DNA from: a virus
Taxonomy: Duplodnaviria; Heunggongvirae; Uroviricota; Caudoviricetes
Virus record (IMG/VR): IMGVR_UViG_2778261447_000001
Span: 1-9,120 of that record
Reading direction: 5' to 3' (one strand)
Length of the DNA stretch: 9,120 bases
A program made the position numbers and the translations under genes. Below, one piece after another: positions 1-9,120 of this stretch (its first letter is position 1; the number at the start of each line of letters is the position of its first letter). Below the pieces are notes generated by a model. That model saw only the letters and a program-made list of their open reading frames with translations, was not told where the DNA came from and ran no database searches.

Positions 1-130
1 ATGCTTCCATCGGAAACGATGATCTGGCAGCCTGAGTTCACAGATAAAACACTCTCCAGGAAACCCGGGGCGGTTCAATCAGGTTAAATTCACCAATACC
101 TACTGGCTGCAACAGCAGACCAAACAGGCG

Positions 131-553
131 TTGTATAACGGAGCCACACCAATTAGCTTCACAGCAACGGTTACTGCTGATGCTGATTCAGACAGCAGTG
201 GCGATGTGACGGTTACGCTTTCTGGTGTTCCGATTTATGACACTACAAACCCGCAGTACAACTCTGTAAGTCGTCAGGTAGCGGCAGGCGATGCCGTATC
301 TGTGGTAGGCACTGCTAGCCAGACAATGAAGCCAAACCTGTTCTATAACAAGTTCTTCTGTGGACTTGGCTCTATCCCACTACCGAAACTGCACAGTATT
401 GATTCTGCTGTTGCAACATATGAAGGTTTCTCTATCCGCGTACATAAATACGCAGATGGCGATGCCAACGTGCAAAAAATGCGCTTCGACTTACTGCCTG
501 CATATGTGTGCTTTAACCCTCACATGGGCGGTCAGTTCTTCGGTAATCCGTAA
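131..553 (+). CDS. Probable 3' portion of the major capsid (coat) gene; start codon unresolved. The frame is open from nt 23, and the first candidate start is TTG at 131.
   Basis: Long ORF with gene-like, beta-rich composition (T/S/V/G/A) ending at TAA 551-553, followed at once by a strong intrinsic terminator, as expected after a highly expressed capsid gene. It sits just upstream of the gp4-like gene, as coat does in P22-like phages. Similarity to my recalled P22 coat C-terminus is only loose. No ATG/GTG with a Shine-Dalgarno lies in frame. Confidence 0.5.
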   Translation: MYNGATPISFTATVTADADSDSSGDVTVTLSGVPIYDTTNPQYNSVSRQVAAGDAVSVVGTASQTMKPNLFYNKFFCGLGSIPLPKLHSIDSAVATYEGFSIRVHKYADGDANVQKMRFDLLPAYVCFNPHMGGQFFGNP

Positions 554-557
554 TAAC

Positions 558-584
558 AAGGGGCTTACGCCCCTTTTATGTTTT
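558..584 (+). terminator. Rho-independent terminator after the coat-like ORF
   Basis: Perfect 7-bp GC-rich stem AAGGGGC (558-564), loop TTAC, GCCCCTT (569-575), followed by T-tract TTTTATGTTTT. Confidence 0.65.
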
Positions 585-594
585 AAGGAAAAAT

Positions 595-780
595 ATGGAT
601 CGCATGAGTGTATTCCTTGCCGCAGATAACGAATCCGGGCATGTACAGGCCGTTATCGCAGAAAAAGACTTCCAGTTTTTCGAAAAGTTGGGCTTTGTTG
701 CCTCAGTTGATGAATTGAAACCGACCAGTAAGCGAGGTCGTAAGGCGGAAGACAATGGCAACAGTACTGACAAAGGGTGA
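595..780 (+). CDS. Small acidic hypothetical protein (61 aa)
   Basis: ATG at 595 preceded by a strong Shine-Dalgarno (AAGGAAAAATATG) immediately after the terminator. Overlaps the gp4-like start by 26 nt in another frame. No recognisable domain. Confidence 0.4.
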   Translation: MDRMSVFLAADNESGHVQAVIAEKDFQFFEKLGFVASVDELKPTSKRGRKAEDNGNSTDKG

Positions 781-1237
781 GATCGTCCTTTTTGCGCTTC
801 GTAAGTTTGCTATTGCTTCTAATGCATCGCTGACTGATGTTGAGCCGCAATCAATTGAAGATGGTGTAAATGATCTGGAAGATATGATGTCCGAGTGGAT
901 GATTAACCCCGGCGACATTGGTTACGCTTTCGCAACTGGAGATGAGCAACCATTACCAGATGATGAGTCAGGTCTTCCAAGAAAATACAAACACGCAGCA
1001 GGCTATCAGTTATTGCTGAGAATGCTATCTGATTACAGCCTTGAGCCAACTCCGCAAGTTCTCAGTAACGCCCAACGCTCATATGATGCCTTGATGACCG
1101 ACACTCTGGTTGTTCCTTCAATGCGACGACGTGGAGATTTTCCTGTAGGACAGGGTAATAAATATGACGTGTTTACATCTGACCGATATTATCCAGGCAA
1201 TCTCCCTCTGATTGATGGCGATATCCCAAACGCATAG
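755..1237 (+). CDS. P22 gp4-like head completion / tail accessory protein (160 aa)
   Basis: Motif ASLTDVEPQS and overall layout match my recollection of P22 gp4 (166 aa; ...ATLTDVEPQS...). Sits at the expected position before the gp10-like gene. Shine-Dalgarno AAGGCGGA upstream of the ATG. Confidence 0.8.
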   Translation: MATVLTKGEIVLFALRKFAIASNASLTDVEPQSIEDGVNDLEDMMSEWMINPGDIGYAFATGDEQPLPDDESGLPRKYKHAAGYQLLLRMLSDYSLEPTPQVLSNAQRSYDALMTDTLVVPSMRRRGDFPVGQGNKYDVFTSDRYYPGNLPLIDGDIPNA

Positions 1238-1245
1238 GTGAATAA

Positions 1246-2664
1246 ATGCCGATTCAGCAACTTCCGCTTATGAAAGGTGTCGGCAAAGACTTTCGAAACG
1301 CCGACTATATCGACTATCTGCCAGTGAATATGCTGGCTACACCCAAAGAAATCCTCAACAGCAGCGGATATCTTCGCTCATTCCCGGGCATTGCCAAACG
1401 TTCTGATGTGAACGGCGTATCGCGAGGCGTCGAGTACAACATGGCGCAGAATGCTGTTTATCGCGTGTGTGGTGGCAAGCTGTATAAGGGCGAAAGTGAA
1501 GTCGGTGATGTTGCCGGAAGTGGTCGCGTATCAATGGCGCATGGTCGGACATCACAGGCGGTAGGCGTTAATGGTCAACTGGTCGAGTATCGTTATGATG
1601 GCACGGTTAAAACAGTCTCAAACTGGCCTACAGACAGCGGATTCACGCAGTATGAGTTAGGTTCAGTTCGCGACATTACGCGCTTACGTGGGCGTTATGC
1701 GTGGTCAAAAGACGGAACTGATTCATGGTTTATCACTGACCTTGAAGACGAATCGCACCCTGACCGATACAGTGCACAATATCGCGCAGAATCGCAGCCG
1801 GACGGTATCCTCGGTATCGGGACATGGCGAGACTTCATCGTCTGCTTTGGTTCATCGACTATTGAATATTTCTCCCTGACTGGTGCAACCACTGTTGGTG
1901 CTGCTTTGTATGTCGCACAGCCATCACTGATGGTGCAGAAAGGTATTGCCGGGACTTACTGCAAAACGCCATTCGCTGATTCTTATGCGTTCATCAGCAA
2001 TCCGGCAACAGGTGCTCCGTCTGTATACATCATCGGATCCGGTCAGGTTTCACCAATCGCCAGCGCGAGCATTGAGAAAATTCTCCGCTCCTACACTGCT
2101 GATGAACTGGCTGATGGTGTGATGGAGTCTCTGCGATTTGATGCGCATGAGCTGCTGATTATCCATCTTCCGCGCCATGTTCTGGTGTACGACGCATCTT
2201 CAAGCGCCAATGGTCCGCAATGGTGTGTGCTGAAAACAGGTCTGTATGACGATGTGTACCGCGCTATCGACTTCATTTACGAAGGCAATCAGATAACGTG
2301 CGGCGATAAGCTGGAGTCCGTGACCGGGAAATTGCAATTCGACATCAGCAGCCAGTATGGGCTACAGCAAGAACACCTGCTGTTTACTCCGTTGTTCAAA
2401 GCGGATAACGCCAGATGCTTCGATCTGGAGGTGGAATCATCCACTGGCGTAGCTCAGTACGCCGACCGCCTGTTCCTCTCTGCAACCACTGACGGCATCA
2501 ATTACGGTCGTGAGCAGATGATTGAGCAGAATGAACCGTTCGTTTACGACAAACGCGTTTTGTGGAAGCGTGTCGGGCGCATCAGGAAAAATGTCGGCTT
2601 CAAATTGCGCGTTATCACTAAGTCACCTGTCACTCTGTCTGGCTGCCAGATAAGGATTGAGTAA
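1246..2664 (+). CDS. P22 gp10-like tail accessory (tail hub) protein, 472 aa
   Basis: Same length as P22 gp10 (472 aa) and same position between the gp4-like and needle genes. Shine-Dalgarno AGGTGA before the ATG. Stop overlaps the next start (TAATG). Confidence 0.8.
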
Positions 2665-3365
2665 TGGCGGATTCGAATCTCAATGTGCCGGTAATCATCC
2701 AAGCTACGCGGCTCGATACATCAATCCTTCCACGCAATATATTCAGCCAGTCTTACCTGCTGTATGTCATAAATCAGGGTGCTGATGTTGGCGCAATTGC
2801 CGGGAAGGCAAATCAGGCTGGTCAGGGCGCTTACGATGCTCAGGTAAAAAACGATGAACAGGACGTCGAACTGGCAGATCACGACGCAAGAATCACCGCA
2901 AACACAAAAGCGATAAATCTCCTTGAGGTCAGGTTAACAACCGCCGAAGGGAAGATAGTCGTACTGCGTAGCGATGTTGATTACTTGCTGGATGAGGTTA
3001 TCGATATTCAGGCGCATCTGGTCACTGTTGACCAAAGACTGGATGGCGTAGAAAGCGATGTATCTGACATTAAGAGTGATTACGTATCGAAAACCGTAAC
3101 CGAATCGCAGTCTCTTGCGTCACCGCTGGATGTAAAAACATCATATTCAGTTGATGGAATTCAGGTCGTTGGAGCAAGGCAGACCGGATGGACTGCAGCC
3201 ACAGGTACGCCACTTCTTGGCTCATTCAACGCAAACCAGTCATACACTGTCGGCACTACGTACACGCAATCCGAAGTCGCAGCTCTCGCTACAGGTTTGC
3301 AGCAGGCGCGGCAGCGTATTCTGGCGCTTGAAACGGCACTTAGATTACATGGGCTGATTGACTGA
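2664..3365 (+). CDS. P22 gp26-like tail needle (plug) protein, 233 aa
   Basis: N-terminus ([25 protein letters not shown]...[35 protein letters not shown]) and C-terminus (...[15 protein letters not shown]...[21 protein letters not shown]) match recalled P22 gp26. Identical length of 233 aa. Start overlaps the gp10-like stop. Confidence 0.9.
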
Positions 3366-3820
3366 TGATTACATTCAAACCAACGCGAAACATCGACCTG
3401 ATCGAAGCAGTAGGAAATCACCCTGACATTATCGCCGGGAGCAACAACGGTGATGGATACGACTACAAACCTGATTGCCGTTACTTTGAGGTGAACGTGC
3501 ACGGGCAGTTCGGCGGCATTGTTTACTATCAGGAGATTCAGCCGCTGACATTCGATTGCCACGCAATGTACCTGCCAGAGATTCGCGGCTTCAGCAAGGA
3601 AATCGGGCTGGCGTTCTGGCGATACATTCTGACTAACACCACCGTTCAGTGCGTCACATCGTTCGCCGCACGCAAATTCCGCCACGGGCAGATTTACTGC
3701 GCAATGATTGGCCTTAAGCGTGTCGGAACCATCAAGAAATACTTTAAAGGCGTTGATGACGTGACTTTTTACAGCGCCACACGCGAAGAACTAATCGACT
3801 TCCTGAATCACGGGAGATAG
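3365..3820 (+). CDS. Hypothetical virion protein at the P22 gene-14 position (151 aa)
   Basis: ORF translationally coupled to the needle gene (TGATG overlap) and lying between the needle and gp7-like genes. I do not confidently recognise the sequence. Confidence 0.55.
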   Translation: MITFKPTRNIDLIEAVGNHPDIIAGSNNGDGYDYKPDCRYFEVNVHGQFGGIVYYQEIQPLTFDCHAMYLPEIRGFSKEIGLAFWRYILTNTTVQCVTSFAARKFRHGQIYCAMIGLKRVGTIKKYFKGVDDVTFYSATREELIDFLNHGR

Positions 3821-3822
3821 CC

Positions 3823-4515
3823 ATGTTATATGCATTTAAGCTGGGCAGAAAACTGCGCGGCGAGGAACCTTATTGCCCTGAAAAAGGCGGGAAAGGTGGC
3901 AGTTCTGATAAAAGCGCAAAGTATGCAGCAGAAGCTCAGAAGTATGCCGCAGACCTGCAAAATCAGCAGTGGCAGACGATCATGAAAAACCTTGCTCCGT
4001 TCACGCCTCTTGCGGAGCAGTATGTTAACCAGCTTCAGAACCTTTCCAGTTTAGAAGGTCAGGGGCAGGCACTTAATCAGTATTACAACTCTCAGCAGTA
4101 TAAAGACCTTGCAGGTCAGGCTCGTTACCAGAGTCTTGCTGCTGCGGAGGCTACGGGAGGACTTGGTTCGACAGCCACAAGCAATCAACTGGCTACGATC
4201 GCGCCGACTCTCGGTCAGTCTTGGTTGTCAAACCAGATGAGCAATTACAACAATCTGGCAAACGTTGGGCTTGGTGCTCTGCAAGGTCAGGCAAACGCCG
4301 GGCAGACGTACGCCAACAACATGAGCAGCATTGCACAGCAAAGCGCAGCTCTTGCCGCTGCTAATGCCAATAAACCATCAAGTCTTCAGACTGCAATTAG
4401 CGGTGGCACGTCTGGTGCGATTGCCGGTGCAGGTCTTGCCAGCCTTTTGGGAACATCAACGCCTTGGGGCGCTGGCATTGGTGCTGGTATCGGATTGCTT
4501 GGCTCGTTGTTTTAA
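3823..4515 (+). CDS. P22 gp7-like ejection (E) protein, 230 aa
   Basis: Position and size match P22 gp7 (229 aa). Q/N/A-rich body with a Gly/Ala-rich hydrophobic C-terminal tail (GAIAGAGLASLLG...GAGIGAGIGLLGSLF). Shine-Dalgarno GGGAGA before the ATG. Confidence 0.75.
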   Translation: MLYAFKLGRKLRGEEPYCPEKGGKGGSSDKSAKYAAEAQKYAADLQNQQWQTIMKNLAPFTPLAEQYVNQLQNLSSLEGQGQALNQYYNSQQYKDLAGQARYQSLAAAEATGGLGSTATSNQLATIAPTLGQSWLSNQMSNYNNLANVGLGALQGQANAGQTYANNMSSIAQQSAALAAANANKPSSLQTAISGGTSGAIAGAGLASLLGTSTPWGAGIGAGIGLLGSLF

Positions 4516-4524
4516 GGGGTAATC

Positions 4525-5856
4525 ATGGCTACTTGGCAAGGAACAAACGGCGGATTGTTGGCTGGTATCGGCGGCGTCAACTCAAACGCTCCGAGCGTAA
4601 ATGACATCGGCAATACGCTTCAGCTTATCAGGCAGAACAATGATATTGAGCGTTCAGGCGCTAACAATGTTGGGCTGACTGCTTTGCAAGGCCTTTCAGG
4701 TATTGCGGGGGTGTTTCAGCAGGAAAAGCAGGCTCAGCGGCAGAAAGAATTTCAGCAGGCATACGCTAATGCTTATGCGTCTGGTGATCGCGGTGCTTTG
4801 CGTCAGTTAGCTACTCAATATCCAGACCAGATTGAATCCGTTCGTAAAGGCATGGGATTCATTGATGAAGAGCAGCGCAATTCTATCGGCACCTTAGCGG
4901 CTGGCGCACGCCTTGCGTCATCGTCTCCTGATGCGATGGCTAACTGGCTGCAATCTAACGCCGGTGAGTTAGCTCGTGTTGGCGTTAATCCTCAGGATGT
5001 CGCTCAGATGTACCAACAGAACCCGCAGCAGTTCGGCGAATTTGTCGATCACCTGGGGATGGCCAGTCTCGGACCCGAAAAATACTTTGACCTTCAGGAT
5101 AAAATGCAGGGTCGCCAGGTGACCATGCGCGGTCAGGATCTGGATTCGCAAACCGCCGCCCGGAATCAGGCAATCACAATGCGTGGGCAAGATATCCAGG
5201 CAAATTTAGGTCAGCAGCGCATTAATCTGGACGCAGAAACAAACCGCATTAACAACGAAAATAAGCACCTTGACCGGATGCTATCAGCAGAAACTAACGA
5301 CCTGAAGCGCCAGGAAATACAGAGCCGCATAGCAGCCAACAACCAGAAGTTGCAGCAGAAGCAGCAAGAGCTAAATGATGGCTACAAAGACGGCATCAAC
5401 ACTCTCACAACCAGCATGTTCACTCTGAACGATATCGTTAATTCTCCTGCACTTAAGAGCATTACAGGCTTACGTGGAGCAATCCCCAACGTTCCAGGCT
5501 CACAAGCTGCAGACACTCAGGCGCGACTTGATACCTTTAAATCCCAAGCATACCTGACAGCGGTTCAGGCCATGCGAGGCATGGGCGCACTTTCTGATGC
5601 CGAGGGCAAAAAGCTCGACCAGGCTGTTGGTTCGCTGCAGAACTCACAGAGCGAGGAGTCCTTTCGTCGCAACGCTGGCGTCATCCTGAACACGCTCAAC
5701 CAGAAGCGTAATGAGGCGGTTGGTAAGTACGTTCAGCAAAACGGTATCAAGCGAGTGGAAGCGCCTCAGGCTTCTATAGATTACCTGAAGCAGCACCCCG
5801 AGCTGTCAATCGACTTCATTAATCGCTACGGATATCTTCCATCTTTGGGGCAGTAA
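4525..5856 (+). CDS. P22 gp20-like ejection protein, 443 aa
   Basis: Second of three consecutive ejection-protein genes (P22 order 7-20-16). Shine-Dalgarno AAGGGG before the ATG. Q/N-rich with internal short repeats. Confidence 0.7.
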   Translation: MATWQGTNGGLLAGIGGVNSNAPSVNDIGNTLQLIRQNNDIERSGANNVGLTALQGLSGIAGVFQQEKQAQRQKEFQQAYANAYASGDRGALRQLATQYPDQIESVRKGMGFIDEEQRNSIGTLAAGARLASSSPDAMANWLQSNAGELARVGVNPQDVAQMYQQNPQQFGEFVDHLGMASLGPEKYFDLQDKMQGRQVTMRGQDLDSQTAARNQAITMRGQDIQANLGQQRINLDAETNRINNENKHLDRMLSAETNDLKRQEIQSRIAANNQKLQQKQQELNDGYKDGINTLTTSMFTLNDIVNSPALKSITGLRGAIPNVPGSQAADTQARLDTFKSQAYLTAVQAMRGMGALSDAEGKKLDQAVGSLQNSQSEESFRRNAGVILNTLNQKRNEAVGKYVQQNGIKRVEAPQASIDYLKQHPELSIDFINRYGYLPSLGQ

Positions 5857-8250
5857 ATGGCTAATTACCGTGATTTGTTAGAGCAGGCTGGCGCACGTTA
5901 CGGTGTGCCAGAAGGGTTGATGACTGCACTGGGTGCCAAGGAGTCTTCTTACAACCCTGCCGCAGTAAGCTCCGCCGGGGCTGTAGGATTGACTCAGGTC
6001 ATGCCTGGGACATGGCGTGATATGGGTTATACCGATGAGCAAATGCAAAACCCCGAATATCAGGCTGACGCTGGCGCGCGCTATCTGGCAAAGATGTACC
6101 AGCAGTTTGGTAACTGGCGTGACGCTCTTCAGGCTTATCACGACGGTCCCGGCAACGTTATGAAGGCAAAGCGTGGTGAATATACGCCAGGACCTGAAGG
6201 CCGCGGTTACGTTGATGATCGCTTTGCTCAATGGGCGGGTGACCCGGTGACAGACTCAACAGTCGAACAGCGCGCCACCTCTGCAAAGGTACATCCTCAG
6301 CAAGACCCTAACAACCCGTTTGCACAACTGGAAGCACAGTCATCCGAACAAGTATCGGCATCAGGCGTGCAGTCAGACCCAAATAATCCATTTGCTCAGA
6401 TTGAGCAGCAGGCAGCCAGTCAGCAGCCACCTCAACCCGTAAGTTCTGTCGCACCGAAACCTGTTCAGCAGCAAGGCGGAATAATGTCTGACCTTGGTAA
6501 TGGACTTGCTGAAACCGGGCGCGGCTTACTACAGGCAGGAATCAACGTAGCGAACATACCTTCTGAACTCACTGATGCTGTAACAAGCGCGGCGGCTTGG
6601 GCTGGCGGTAAACTCGGTATTGGCGATGGTACATATCAACCAGCACCACGAGTAACAACGCAGGGATTAGAGCAGGACTTTGGCCTTAAGCAAGGCGCGC
6701 TGACTCCACAAACGACAGAGGGAAGGGTATTTGCTGAAGCATTGCCTTACCTCACTCCCGCTGGCATTGAGAGAGCGGCAACACAGGCACCAACACTTGC
6801 TGGTCGAATTGCTCAGGGGGCAACTCGCCTTCTAGCAGAAAACGCAGTTGGATCACTTGCTGCAAATAGTGCGAAAGATGATGCGGAAGCACTCGCCACC
6901 GATTTAGGCGTTGGTGTACTTGCTGGCGGTGCTATTAACGCTGCCGGACGTGGATTAGGTGCTGCTTATCGTGGCGTTCGTGGTGCTATCGCGCCAGAAG
7001 CGCAGCAGGCTATCAGATTTGCAGAGCGTGAAGGAGTTCCTCTGCACACCACAGACCTGTTACAACCCACTTCCCGCGTCGGAAAAATGGCGCAGACTAC
7101 AGCAGAAAATATCCCTCTGGCTGGCACAAGCGGAATGAGAGCAACGCAACAGGAAGCGAGAAGCCAGTTGGTGCAGAGATTTGCCGATAAATTCGGTGAG
7201 TATGATCCAGCGGTTGTTATTGACAGCCTTAAAGCGAAAACATCAGGAATTCGTCGTGCCGCCGGTAATCGACTGGAGCAGGTACAGAATGCAATGGCAG
7301 GAATCAACATTCAACCTGCCAGAGCAATTCAGCAGATAGATACTGAGATATCTAACCTGCAGAAGCTTGGTAAGGTCGCTGATAACGAGACGATTTCAAA
7401 ACTTCAATCCTATCGTGATGAGCTTATTCGCAATGCTGGTCCTGATGGTCCGGTAAATCTGGATTTGAAGCAATTAAGCGATCTACGCAGCCAGTTCAGA
7501 ATGGACGTGAAGGGTGAGCGACCAGTGTTACCAAACCGCTCCGATGCCGCCATTCAGCGCGTTTACAAGGCGATGACAGACGATATCAATGGTGCCATTG
7601 GTCAGAATCTTGGCAATGATACTCTCCGTAAATATCAGCAGGCCAATGCCGTCTACGCTGACGAAGCAGCGAAACTAAAGAATACCAGGCTGAAGAATGT
7701 TCTCATGAAAGGCGACCTGACACCGGAAGTTGTCAACAACATGCTATTCAGCAAGAACAAATCGGAAATTAAGACGCTGTATAACTCAGTTGGTCGTGTT
7801 GGCAGGGCGCAAATGCGCAATGGCATCATTGGGAAGGCGATGGAGAAATCTGGCGGATCCCCTGACCAGTTCCTTCGACAGCTTAACATCCTGCAAAACC
7901 AGACTGGCATCACATTTAAGGGGCAGGACGCTGCTTATCTGAAAGGATTGAAAAACTACCTGCAATCCACGCAGCAGGCTGCAAAAGCGGCAGTAACAAC
8001 ACCAACAGGGCAGCAAACCATCCCGTTCATTATCGGATATGGGACAGCAATGAACCCTGCGACAACTGGCGCAGCAGTAAGCTACGGACTTCTTACTCGC
8101 GCCTATGAGAGTGAGCCATTCAGAAATGCAATGCTCCGAATGGCAAACACCCCACGCGGATCAACAGCGTTTGAGAAAGCCATGCAGCAGGCGCAAAAGG
8201 CCATTAACGCTCTGACGCAGGGGGCTAAGTCTGATGCGTTGTCAGAATAG
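5857..8250 (+). CDS. gp16-like ejection protein with an N-terminal lytic transglycosylase (SLT/GH23) domain, 797 aa
   Basis: ATG abuts the gp20-like stop (TAAATG). The N-terminal ~120 aa carry SLT motifs: catalytic Glu in AKESSYNP, then GLTQVMPGTW and AYHDGPGN. The remaining ~600 aa match the size and position of P22 gp16 (609 aa). Confidence 0.85.
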   Translation: MANYRDLLEQAGARYGVPEGLMTALGAKESSYNPAAVSSAGAVGLTQVMPGTWRDMGYTDEQMQNPEYQADAGARYLAKMYQQFGNWRDALQAYHDGPGNVMKAKRGEYTPGPEGRGYVDDRFAQWAGDPVTDSTVEQRATSAKVHPQQDPNNPFAQLEAQSSEQVSASGVQSDPNNPFAQIEQQAASQQPPQPVSSVAPKPVQQQGGIMSDLGNGLAETGRGLLQAGINVANIPSELTDAVTSAAAWAGGKLGIGDGTYQPAPRVTTQGLEQDFGLKQGALTPQTTEGRVFAEALPYLTPAGIERAATQAPTLAGRIAQGATRLLAENAVGSLAANSAKDDAEALATDLGVGVLAGGAINAAGRGLGAAYRGVRGAIAPEAQQAIRFAEREGVPLHTTDLLQPTSRVGKMAQTTAENIPLAGTSGMRATQQEARSQLVQRFADKFGEYDPAVVIDSLKAKTSGIRRAAGNRLEQVQNAMAGINIQPARAIQQIDTEISNLQKLGKVADNETISKLQSYRDELIRNAGPDGPVNLDLKQLSDLRSQFRMDVKGERPVLPNRSDAAIQRVYKAMTDDINGAIGQNLGNDTLRKYQQANAVYADEAAKLKNTRLKNVLMKGDLTPEVVNNMLFSKNKSEIKTLYNSVGRVGRAQMRNGIIGKAMEKSGGSPDQFLRQLNILQNQTGITFKGQDAAYLKGLKNYLQSTQQAAKAAVTTPTGQQTIPFIIGYGTAMNPATTGAAVSYGLLTRAYESEPFRNAMLRMANTPRGSTAFEKAMQQAQKAINALTQGAKSDALSE
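6304..6411 (+). repeat. Tandem duplication of a short peptide motif (DPNNPFAQ[L/I]E) in the linker of the gp16-like protein, period 72 nt
   Basis: gaccctaacaacccgtttgcacaactggaa (6304-) and gacccaaataatccatttgctcagattgag (6376-) encode QDPNNPFAQLE and SDPNNPFAQIE. The two copies differ mostly at synonymous positions. Confidence 0.6.
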
Positions 8251-8319
8251 CTTCGCAAACACCAGGAACGTGCAAAAACCAAATATGTAGAACGCAATAT
8301 TCAGCATATCTCTTTGCAT
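8242..8319 (-). CDS. Candidate small hydrophobic peptide (25 aa, MQRDMLNIAFYIFGFCTFLVFAKLF)
   Basis: Hand-translated - strand ORF. ATG lies 4 nt after a GGAGG Shine-Dalgarno and 20 nt after the mnt stop. Predicted single transmembrane-like helix. Overlaps the last 9 nt of the gp16-like gene. Too short to judge by composition. Confidence 0.25.
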   Translation of the reverse strand: MQRDMLNIAFYIFGFCTFLVFAKLF

Positions 8320-8339
8320 AAATCCTCCGTAATGGATGG

Positions 8340-8600
8340 TTATCTGCTGTCTTTTTTATATAGCTTCTTGAGCGTATCAAAGACAATTTTCTTAACCATA
8401 TCAGATTGTTGTTCTGCCATACGCTCTGCATCGTCAATGTAAACTGATGCAGAGCTTTGTTTAGCCAACGATTCTTCAATCGCTGCAATTATCTCTGAGT
8501 TCAGCGACCTGTTATTCATCTTCGCGCGCTGTTTAATTTTCGCGTGAAGTTCATGCGGAAGTCTCAAGTGAAACTGCGCCTCGTCGTATTTGCTGTACAT
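8340..8600 (-). CDS. mnt: Mnt-like ribbon-helix-helix (Arc/MetJ family) repressor, 86 aa
   Basis: C-terminal half DAERMAEQQSDMVKKIVFDTLKKLYKK closely matches recalled P22 Mnt (DAERLADEQSELVKKMVFDTLKDLYKK). The N-terminal strand FHLRLPHELHAKIKQRAKMNNRSLNSEI matches the RHH pattern (P22: FNFRMPMEVREKLKFRAEANGRSMNSEL). Start chosen at the internal ATG (8600), which has GAGG 8 nt upstream; the upstream ATG at 8633 has no Shine-Dalgarno. Confidence 0.8.
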   Translation of the reverse strand: MYSKYDEAQFHLRLPHELHAKIKQRAKMNNRSLNSEIIAAIEESLAKQSSASVYIDDAERMAEQQSDMVKKIVFDTLKKLYKKDSR

Positions 8601-8721
8601 CCTTGATGCCTCACCAGTTGGGTGGAATGGCATCGTAACTTACTGGATAAATACTCAATAGTACCATTTCGGTATGCAATCACATCATGGTTGCATCATA
8701 TCATTCGTCTGGAGCAATGAA
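8601..8721. promoter_or_regulatory. Divergent intergenic control region between mnt (-) and tailspike (+); expected site of the mnt promoter and operator
   Basis: 121-bp AT-rich spacer between divergent starts. Contains an inverted repeat ATGCAA-N11-TTGCAT (8674-8696) and a short CACC-N5-GGTG dyad (about 8611-8623). The promoter hexamers are not confidently assignable by eye. Confidence 0.35.
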
Positions 8722-9045
8722 ATGTCAGATATCACCGCAAATGTTGTGGTAAGCATGCCTTCGCAACTCTTCACTATGGCGCGTTCTTTTAAAGCGGTTG
8801 CCAATGGCAAAATTTATATCGGAAAAATTGACACTGACCCGGTAAATCCTGAAAACCAGATTCAGGTTTATATAGAGAACGAAGACGGCTCTCACGTTCC
8901 TGTTTCGCAACCAATCATCATTAATGCTGCTGGATATCCGGTATATAACGGACAGATTGCCAAGTTCGTAACTGTGCAAGGCCACTCTATGGCTGTTTAT
9001 GATGCGTACGGTTCGCAGCAGTTCTATTTCCCGAATGTACTTAAG
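8722..9045 (+). pseudogene. Tailspike gene (P22 gp9-like), N-terminal head-binding domain only; truncated after codon 108 by an IS2 insertion
   Basis: Translation [108 protein letters not shown] is near-identical to recalled P22 tailspike residues 1-108. Shine-Dalgarno GGAG lies 7 nt before the ATG at 8722. After ...FPNVLK the sequence switches to IS2 terminal sequence. Confidence 0.85.
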
Positions 9046-9120
9046 TGGATTTGCCCCTATATTTCCAGACATCTGTTATCACTTAACCCATTACAAGCCC
9101 GCTGCCGCAGATATTCCCGT
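9046..9120 (-). mobile_element. IS2 insertion sequence terminus (partial; the element continues past the window end), transposase on the - strand
   Basis: 9046-9120 is the reverse complement of the recalled IS2 end ...CGGGAATATCTGCGGCAGCGGGCTTGTAATGGGTTAAGTGATAACAGATGTCTGGAAATATAGGGGCAAATCCA. On the - strand it encodes the transposase OrfB C-terminus ...[20 protein letters not shown] with its stop at 9057-9059. Confidence 0.8.

Follow-up and report, generated by a model that had tools for sequence, protein, structure and literature searches.

A lytic transglycosylase-like head fused to the gp16-family ejection protein of a P22-like prophage

The DNA considered here comprises 9,120 nucleotides (nt) of the IMG/VR virus record IMGVR_UViG_2778261447_000001 (positions 1 to 9,120, hereafter the window) and, according to Pfam and PHROG assignments, covers part of the late operon in a prophage that is P22-like (Lederbergvirus-type) and of the Escherichia/Shigella kind. 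The top matches over the whole window are E. coli prophages, at ~96% identity. In the place of gene 16, the window encodes a protein of 797 amino acids (aa), hereafter SLT-gp16, in which an SLT/GH23 domain (the head) is joined through a linker to a body of the gp16 family of ejection proteins. The features discussed below are listed with their coordinates in Table 1.

The head, the linker and the gp16-family body

The N-terminal region of SLT-gp16 matches the profile PF01464 (SLT) over residues 7-110 with 88.6 bits, against a gathering cut-off of 21.3 (E=2.8e-25, profile positions 2-110 of 117), and residues 1-150 searched alone match it with E=1.6e-26, so that the match lies far beyond chance. 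Three motifs are found within the head, namely K28-E29-S30-S31-Y32-N33-P34 (KESSYNP), G44-LTQVMPGT-W53 and A93-YHDGPG-N100. In an ungapped phmmer alignment with E. coli Slt70 (1QSA, E=2.3e-11), E29-S30 stand opposite positions 478-479 of Slt70, of which Glu478 is the catalytic acid; the codon for E29 is GAG (5941-5943). Across 67 diverse SLT proteins, consisting of the window protein and 66 others (alignment A3), residues E29, S30, G44, Q47, Y94 and G97 are invariant, and all six are likewise unchanged in the homologues of Murrayvirus and Skarprettervirus, and thus over three phage genera (alignment A2). The second motif, G44-L-T-Q47, is of the GLMQ type and its sole change is from M to T. In the third motif, A93-Y-H-D-G97, His95 occupies the position at which the Asn of AYNxG is conserved to at least 90%. 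This replacement (6139-6141) was seen in all the SLT-gp16 relatives examined, which read AYHDGPGN, and represents a clade-specific substitution in the region of the active site.

An AlphaFold2 model of residues 1-210 has predicted local distance difference test (pLDDT) values of 90-98 for residues 1-110 and 83 for residues 111-120, with a last core helix at 113-128 and poor values at 130-210, and its confidently folded core agrees with the extent of the head given in Table 1. When this model was used as a Foldseek query, the nearest solved structures were Slt70, LtgA, the Slt of P. aeruginosa, MltE and MltC, with a probability of 1.00. The head is thus confidently predicted to adopt the lysozyme-like alpha-helical GH23 fold, and its solved neighbours are active transglycosylases. 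Judging from its motifs, it appears to be a catalytically competent family-1 (Slt70-like) lytic transglycosylase. Sequence analysis of the 797 residues revealed no signal peptide, no strong transmembrane helix and no Cys.

With regard to the body, its assignment to the gp16 family rests on a match to phrog_770 ('DNA transfer protein') with E=8.8e-239, or E=3.2e-226 for residues 190-797, the value for P22 gp16 itself being 2.3e-266. BLASTP aligns residues 212-786 with residues 60-601 of the 609 residues of P22 gp16 (33% identity, E=5e-77), and Sf6 gp13 (residues 76-665) shares 97% identity with residues 208-797. Furthermore, PF26808 has been precomputed on proteins that are 99% identical to SLT-gp16. 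The body is predicted to be all-alpha, with its most hydrophobic stretch at 345-363 (Kyte-Doolittle 1.36). A full-length AlphaFold2 model built from 18 sequences of 73-89% identity has a mean pLDDT of 47 and a predicted template modelling score of 0.28, and shows only that the body is predicted to be helical. A phmmer search of residues 190-797 against all PDB chains, including those of T7 gp16, gave an unrelated oxidoreductase as its best match (E=0.6). Conversely, no SLT match was obtained in P22 gp16, Sf6 gp13 (665 aa) or the gp16 homologue VSe13_013, even at E<=0.1.

The head and linker are of the Sf101 type and the body is of the Sf6 type. Residues 1-206 are 100% identical to Sf101_0013, and the nucleotide matches switch partner at nt 613-618 of the gene. 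These 206 residues stand where ordinary gp16 proteins have a Q/P-rich N-terminus of 59-75 aa. The same head and linker are found at 100% identity on bodies that are just 76-85% identical in Cronobacter (P0157, P0167), and the body is found at 97% identity without any head in P0238. The idea that the gp16 N-terminus might be a general platform for alternative 'cargo' heads was also considered and rejected. The candidates P0231, P0234 and P0236 (776-798 aa), which join a gp16 body in frame to an N-terminal portion of gp7, NinG or the gp26 needle, are simple deletion fusions, that is, deletion footprints in decaying P22-like prophages rather than functional heads.

The linker between the head and the body is probably disordered, with 47% Q+P+S, a net charge of -5 and pLDDT values of 50-67. 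It contains two copies of a ten-residue motif, which are alike in 9 of the 10 residues and differ in the third position in 8 of the 10 codons, and Tandem Repeats Finder detected no tandem or direct repeat in the linker DNA; the similarity therefore points to selection on the peptide. In all 16 SLT-bearing homologues aligned (alignment A4), the motifs are fixed at positions 153 and 177 and the surrounding residues are variable. All seven fused SLT-gp16 proteins compared, which come from five phage groups, contain exactly two copies of the core motif, [NG]-x-F-[ADE]-Q-[LIFMV], and this motif is absent from P22 gp16, Sf6 gp13 and the window's six other virion proteins. The position of the copies differs between groups. 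The proteins of the Skarpretter/Murray/Sortsne/Kosakonia group carry one copy at their very N-terminus (MAN[IVFP]F[DA]QF) and the other after the SLT domain, whereas the Lederbergvirus form lacks the N-terminal copy and has both after the SLT domain. In one further SLT-gp16 variant (P0220, 886 aa, JGI) the second motif is followed, at residues ~185-290, by an extra linker insert of ~100 aa that includes GKHLGIF and has no Pfam match; P0226 and P0228 (877-880 aa) may resemble it.

These results bear out the initial annotation, which had placed a GH23/SLT signature with the three motifs in residues 1 to about 120, with the Glu of KESSYNP as catalytic residue, followed by a repeat-containing linker and a gp16-like body of ~600 aa, and had held P22 gp16 to be a 609-aa protein devoid of an SLT domain. 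The repeat is real at the peptide level.

The gp20 partner and the gene neighbourhood

The gene directly upstream encodes a homologue of gp20, presumed to be the periplasmic-conduit protein and the partner of gp16. The ATG of SLT-gp16 lies directly 3' of the gp20 stop codon (cagTAAATGgct), and the two also abut in P22 and Sf6. The window gp20 is 97% identical to that of Sf101, with residues 244-443 identical, and is close to Sf6 gp12 in the first ~180 aa only. A second mosaic boundary is located inside gp20, at 5080-5250 (residues ~185-240). Over the N-terminal ~180 aa the identity is ~89-95% with Sf6 as well as with Sf101, and the C-terminal half is of the Sf101 type only, which indicates that the exchange boundaries follow domains, not genes. 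In a set of 5,426 complete E. coli genomes, to which all the E. coli counts given here refer, the gp20 C-terminal segment and the SLT head were each found in 67 genomes, and in 66 genomes the two form a contiguous block. The mobile unit is thus made of the gp20 C-terminal half, the SLT head and the linker.

The association extends to the gp20 C-terminus. In every SLT-bearing phage examined, gp20 has a tail related to that of the window (GYLPEGI, GFLPEGL and GYLPEGL, with GIEPPQP as a Kosakonia variant), whereas the gp20 proteins of P22, Sf6 and VSe13 end otherwise, with no G[YF]LP tail. Across 73 classifiable IMG/VR loci, which were retrieved by gp7 alignment and represent one gp7 type only, the G[YF]LP tail was present in 14 of 14 SLT-present loci, each of them with exactly 2 linker motifs, and in 0 of 59 SLT-absent loci, which had no linker motifs (Fisher p=2.7e-15, for loci that are phylogenetically and physically non-independent). 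An alignment of the gp20 N-domain across genera contained no conserved stretch that could serve for locus retrieval.

Published work with hybrid phages has shown that gp16 and gp20 have to match each other and that gp20 cannot do without its C-terminus, and Sf6 gp16 has been described as a component of the virion that requires a matching gp20. Because of the co-occurrence, of this matching and of the precedent of T7 gp16-N with gp15-C, it can be suggested that the linker motifs may dock on the C-terminal end of gp20. A more specific version, tentative and on balance doubtful, would be that the two N-x-F-[AD]-Q-[LIF] motifs, which lie on both sides of the SLT head or after it, and the gp20 tail (…DYL..P….F…G[YF]LP…) form a co-adapted pair that clamps the transglycosylase onto the distal gp20 tube, as an independently evolved or very distant equivalent of the T7 gp15-C:gp16-N 'molecular tape'.

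With regard to the remaining genes, the structural-gene assignments rest on Pfam and PHROG matches with E-values from 1e-54 to 1e-299. SLT-gp16 occupies the canonical slot in the order gp4-gp10-gp26-gp14-gp7-gp20-[gp16], which is common to P22, Sf6, Sf101 and IME10, and is followed by an mnt-like gene and by the tailspike N-terminus (immI/tailspike region). Between gene 16 and the tailspike gene (8251-8722), the Mnt/Arc-type repressor stands alone, with no P22-type sieA, arc or ant, and the immI region of the window is much reduced. The tailspike gene, whose head-binding domain includes NVLK, is cut after ~108 codons by an end of IS2 at 9046/9047. The rest of the window (9047-9120) is IS2 throughout (100%), and 3,361 of the E. 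coli genomes contain this sequence. Since IS2 breaks the tailspike gene, the prophage is probably defective, with its SLT-gp16 reading frame intact.

Table 1. Features of the window, with coordinates, strand and the basis of each assignment (E, E-value; ORF, open reading frame).
Feature	Position	Strand	Basis
SLT-gp16 fusion ORF, 797 aa plus stop	5857-8250	+	one unbroken ORF
SLT/GH23 lytic transglycosylase head, residues 1-128	5857-6240	+	PF01464, AlphaFold2, Foldseek
Glu29-Ser30 codons, predicted catalytic acid and 'ES' motif	5941-5946	+	Slt70 alignment, conservation
Q/P/S-rich linker, probably disordered, residues 129-207	6241-6477	+	composition, pLDDT
Linker motif copy 1, DPNNPFAQLE, residues 150-159	6304-6333	+	peptide repeat
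Linker motif copy 2, DPNNPFAQIE, residues 174-183	6376-6405	+	peptide repeat
Mosaic junction, Sf101-type head and linker to Sf6-type body, ~residues 205-208	6469-6480	+	identity switch
gp16-family 'DNA transfer protein' body, residues 208-797	6478-8247	+	phrog_770, P22 gp16 BLASTP, PF26808
gp20 homologue, 443 aa	4525-5856	+	PF16928 Inj_translocase, E=3.4e-67
gp20 C-terminal segment travelling with the SLT head	5250-5856	+	E. coli genome counts
gp20 C-terminal tail, GYLPSLGQ	5830-5853	+	comparison across phages
gp4 homologue (tail accessory factor)	755-1237	+	PF11650, E=3.2e-73
gp10	1246-2664	+	Pfam/PHROG
gp26 needle	2664-3365	+	Pfam/PHROG
gp14	3365-3820	+	Pfam/PHROG
gp7 homologue (ejection protein)	3823-4515	+	PF25688 P22_gp7, E=1.8e-134
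Mnt/Arc-type ribbon-helix-helix repressor	8340-8633	-	Pfam/PHROG
Tailspike head-binding N-terminus	from 8723	+	Pfam/PHROG

Distribution, naming and comparison with known systems

The fusion is not confined to this prophage. The full-length gene is found at 97% nt identity in phage IME10, where it is unannotated, and at 94% in phiKp_30, and the SLT head is also found in phages Sf101, Huey, Dewey and APC_JM3.2; all six are plaque-forming isolates with the fusion. In the E. coli genomes, the head was detected in 70 (67 of them at >=99% nt identity) and the exact head-body junction, with >=80% coverage, in 53. The gp7 homologue has a match of any kind in 1,247 genomes and a match with >=80% coverage in 819, which places the share of the fusion at roughly 5-8% of the gp7-carrying E. 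coli genomes; the corresponding share is 19% of the 73 IMG/VR loci with the gp7 type of the window. The sampled members of three related genera, Skarprettervirus, Murrayvirus and Sortsnevirus, carry SLT-gp16, which is the norm there. At the protein level, the combination of PF26808 with PF01464 is found in E. coli (with one cluster of 1,295 members), five Cronobacter species, Klebsiella aerogenes, Kosakonia and Enterobacter. Many database clusters are made of 797-aa proteins that are 99% identical, and the protein identity to many E. coli entries is 98-99%.

The databases already have names for these proteins. The fusion is called 'lytic transglycosylase domain-containing protein' by PGAP, Sf101_0013 was deposited in 2014 as a 'transglycosylase', and the record of Lumpael notes a lysozyme-like domain on its 'DNA transfer protein'. 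A 2022 review states that the SLT domain is missing from P22-like phages, and a 2017 review lists gp4 as the sole virion lysin of P22, citing Moak & Molineux 2004 (PMC5380687). No description of the domain in P22-like phages was found in the literature searched, and an earlier printed mention is possible. The novelty of the fusion had been overestimated in the initial annotation: it is not new, being a common minority variant of the P22-like gp16 that is known to databases and overlooked in the reviews found. What is newly noted is the module formed by the gp20 C-terminal tail, the head and the linker motif.

The same name is also found on proteins that lack the head. The Sf6-type gp16 proteins P0238 and P0240 (665 aa, clusters of 2,252 and 1,304) and VSe13_013 (L004:2722-4719) are SLT-less, with no Pfam SLT match, and are named 'lytic transglycosylase domain-containing protein' by NCBI, which looks like annotation spill-over from their fused relatives. 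In a similar manner, phrog_29864 'transglycosylase' and phrog_21143 'lytic tail fiber protein' match SLT-free parts of P22 gp16. Overall, thousands of SLT-less gp16 proteins carry the wrong label.

Among the characterised or deposited relatives, Sf101_0013 (911 aa, GenBank KJ832078) shares with the window protein the head, the linker and the gene slot, but has another, longer body, with a P22-like proximal segment followed by a region matching phrog_6704, whereas the window body is of the Sf6 type. P22 gp16 and Sf6 gp13 share the body, the PHROG and the position after gp7 and gp20, and differ in their short Q/P-rich N-terminus, which has neither the SLT domain nor the linker motifs. Both proteins are known to be packaged in the virion, released before the DNA and needed for DNA delivery.

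The SLT-gp16 proteins of Skarprettervirus, Murrayvirus, Sortsnevirus and Kosakonia phages (977-1,047 aa) occupy the same slot, with heads that are 55-63% identical (residues 4-144/159). They share the catalytic motifs, AYHDGPGN, the two N-x-F-[AD]-Q motifs and the gp20 G[YF]LP tail, but their bodies are longer and more divergent (phrog_6704 and/or phrog_770) and one of their motifs is N-terminal, after 'MA'. In Kosakonia phage Kc166B (L013:3908-7058), the head with linker (310 aa) and the body (734 aa) are annotated as separate adjacent genes, which is either their natural, unfused state or due to a frameshift or an error in sequencing; in Sortsne and Kc237 two coding sequences likewise lie under the match. 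A split annotation is also seen for gp20 in phage IME_EC2 (L006:3577-4901), where two coding sequences (280 + 161 aa) together make one gp20, possibly as a result of a frameshift or as a real split.

The resemblance to T7 gp16 (PDB 7K5C, 7EYB) that had been proposed in the initial annotation holds for the architecture and fails for close descent. Both proteins have an N-terminal GH23 domain, an extended linker and a large body whose destination is, or in SLT-gp16 would be, the inner membrane and cytoplasm, and both are the last product of a three-gene ejection cassette. In T7, the gp16 linker (157-228) tapes gp15-C into the periplasmic tunnel (PMC8954989), which parallels the linkage between gp20-C and the linker seen in the window. 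However, T7 gp16 has 1,318 aa, is part of a core stack that P22-like phages do not have, and has a body with no detectable sequence similarity. Its residues 11-126 match residues 3-112 of the window protein weakly (E=3e-4, 19-23% identity), and its structures rank 47-50 in the Foldseek output (7eyb_I, 7k5c_B). SLT-gp16 would thus work like T7 gp16 by analogy of architecture, but it is not a member of the T7 gp16 family, since its body has no sequence match to that protein. A recent acquisition of the head from a T7-like phage was ruled out, with heads of the T7 group only ~29-36% identical.

The closest proteins in sequence and structure, Slt70, LtgA, MltE and MltC, have the ES, GLxQ and AYxxG motifs in common with the window head, but are housekeeping enzymes, either secreted into the periplasm or lipoproteins, and have accessory domains of other kinds, whereas SLT-gp16 lacks a signal peptide and would be brought in from outside by a virion. 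P22 gp4, which also has a homologue in the window, resembles SLT-gp16 in being a virion component proposed to handle peptidoglycan at entry. It differs in that it stays in the neck and is not ejected, and in that its only Pfam match is P22_Tail-4, with no lysozyme or SLT domain.

A putative role in DNA entry and its alternatives

In the reading that we favour, with a probability of about 0.72, SLT-gp16 is a virion-packaged ejection protein of the gp16 family whose active Slt70-like head opens the peptidoglycan at entry, with the linker probably docked to gp20. The fusion would probably help the phage DNA through the cell wall. A role at entry had been put forward in the initial annotation, and it is supported by the two tests set beforehand, as both the match to the SLT profile and the homology of the C-terminal ~590 aa to P22 gp16 were found. 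The sequence analysis shows the identity of the domains, intact catalytic motifs, the fold, the membership of the gp16 family, the synteny, the mosaic structure and the co-occurrence, whereas we infer the enzymatic activity, the role in entry, the packaging, the periplasmic location, the timing and the docking to gp20.

The course of events would be as follows. Having no signal peptide, the enzyme could not reach the wall of the cell that produces it, and would stay in the cytoplasm until packed into the capsid like other gp16 proteins. At infection, SLT-gp16 would be expelled through the tail after gp7 and gp20, and its N-terminal head would come to lie in the periplasm, where it would cut glycan strands locally and so make room in the peptidoglycan mesh for the conduit across the envelope. 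The inner membrane would be engaged by the alpha-helical body, in line with what has been proposed for P22 gp16, and the disordered linker with its two N-x-F-[AD]-Q-[LIF] motifs would fasten the head to the distal, C-terminal end of the gp20 tube. In T7 gp16 the transglycosylase activity is needed under some conditions only (PMC8954989), and by analogy that of SLT-gp16 is likely to be conditionally important, for instance with a highly cross-linked wall, in stationary phase or at low temperature, and not essential. A conditional benefit of the head is also probable because P22 and Sf6 do without it.

Several points weigh against this reading. The head is dispensable for the basic mechanism, because P22 and Sf6 infect without it, and P22 gp4 is already listed as a virion lysin (PMC5380687). 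The near-invariant Asn of AYNxG is His95 in SLT-gp16. The copy described here belongs to a prophage with an IS2-disrupted tailspike gene and hence is unlikely to be in use. The co-occurrence of the gp20 tail with the SLT head may be plain linkage, the two being <40 nt apart, together with shared ancestry, and the Fisher p-value overstates independence. The full-length model is too poor to show docking of the head on the body or of the motifs. Finally, the literature searched contained no experimental work on a P22-like SLT-gp16.

Among the alternatives, the one that survives best, with a minor but appreciable share of the probability, is that the head is mainly structural or peptidoglycan-binding, as a part of the conduit or a wall anchor like the 'wings' of the T7 tunnel, with catalysis absent or irrelevant. 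This would be in line with His95, with the tight linkage of the head to a specific gp20 C-terminus and with T7, where gp16-N is built into the gp15:gp16-N tunnel as one of its integral structural elements and has an activity that is required conditionally (PMC8954989). However, Glu-Ser, GLxQ and Y..G are strictly kept across genera that are 44-47% identical over head and linker, and a structural-only role fits poorly with this, because a pure scaffold needs no strict conservation of catalytic residues; moreover, the nearest structural neighbours are all active enzymes.

A considerably less probable view, which we regard as unlikely, is that the head is an auxiliary lysis enzyme at the end of the cycle, of which unpackaged copies reach the wall via holin lesions. 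The protein is made late and has no signal peptide, so that free copies would be cytoplasmic when the holin fires, and some PHROG matches carry 'endolysin' labels. Conversely, the head is covalently fused to the body of an ejection protein, lies in the ejection cassette and not in a lysis cassette, and co-varies with the gp20 C-terminus and not with lysis genes, and the internal-virion lysins T7 gp16, SP6 gp36 and phiKMV gp36 are treated as entry enzymes (PMC5380687).

An artefactual origin of the fusion, by mis-assembly, a mis-called start or a decay deletion bringing gene 16 together with an unrelated SLT gene, would be in line with the IS2 damage to the prophage and with the decay fusions P0231, P0234 and P0236, but is effectively refuted by the 797-aa architecture across the junction in 53 complete E. 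coli genomes and in the 1,295-member cluster, by its presence in isolated infectious phages and, in diverged form, in other genera, by the start codon that abuts the gp20 stop as in P22 and Sf6, and by the different appearance of those decay fusions.

The value of these observations lies in a correction of the literature, in natural pairs with and without the head that can be used for experiments, and in the module of gp20-C, head and linker. The pairs are near-isogenic: Sf6-type bodies that are 97% identical exist both headed and headless, and one and the same head is found on bodies that differ. In the genetically tractable P22/Sf6 system, they allow a direct test of a long-standing question, namely whether and when a podovirus needs to cut peptidoglycan. 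Furthermore, an N-terminal enzyme that acts in the periplasm would constrain the topology of gp16 in the P22 ejectosome, the structure of which is unsolved, and the linkage between gp20-C and the head offers a concrete hypothesis for the known requirement of gp16/gp20 compatibility. If the docking were true, the N-terminus of every P22-like gp16 would be periplasmic and in contact with gp20-C, and the block of gp20-C and gp16-N would be the exchangeable unit that sets gp16/gp20 compatibility, as in the incompatibility of P22/Sf6 hybrids.

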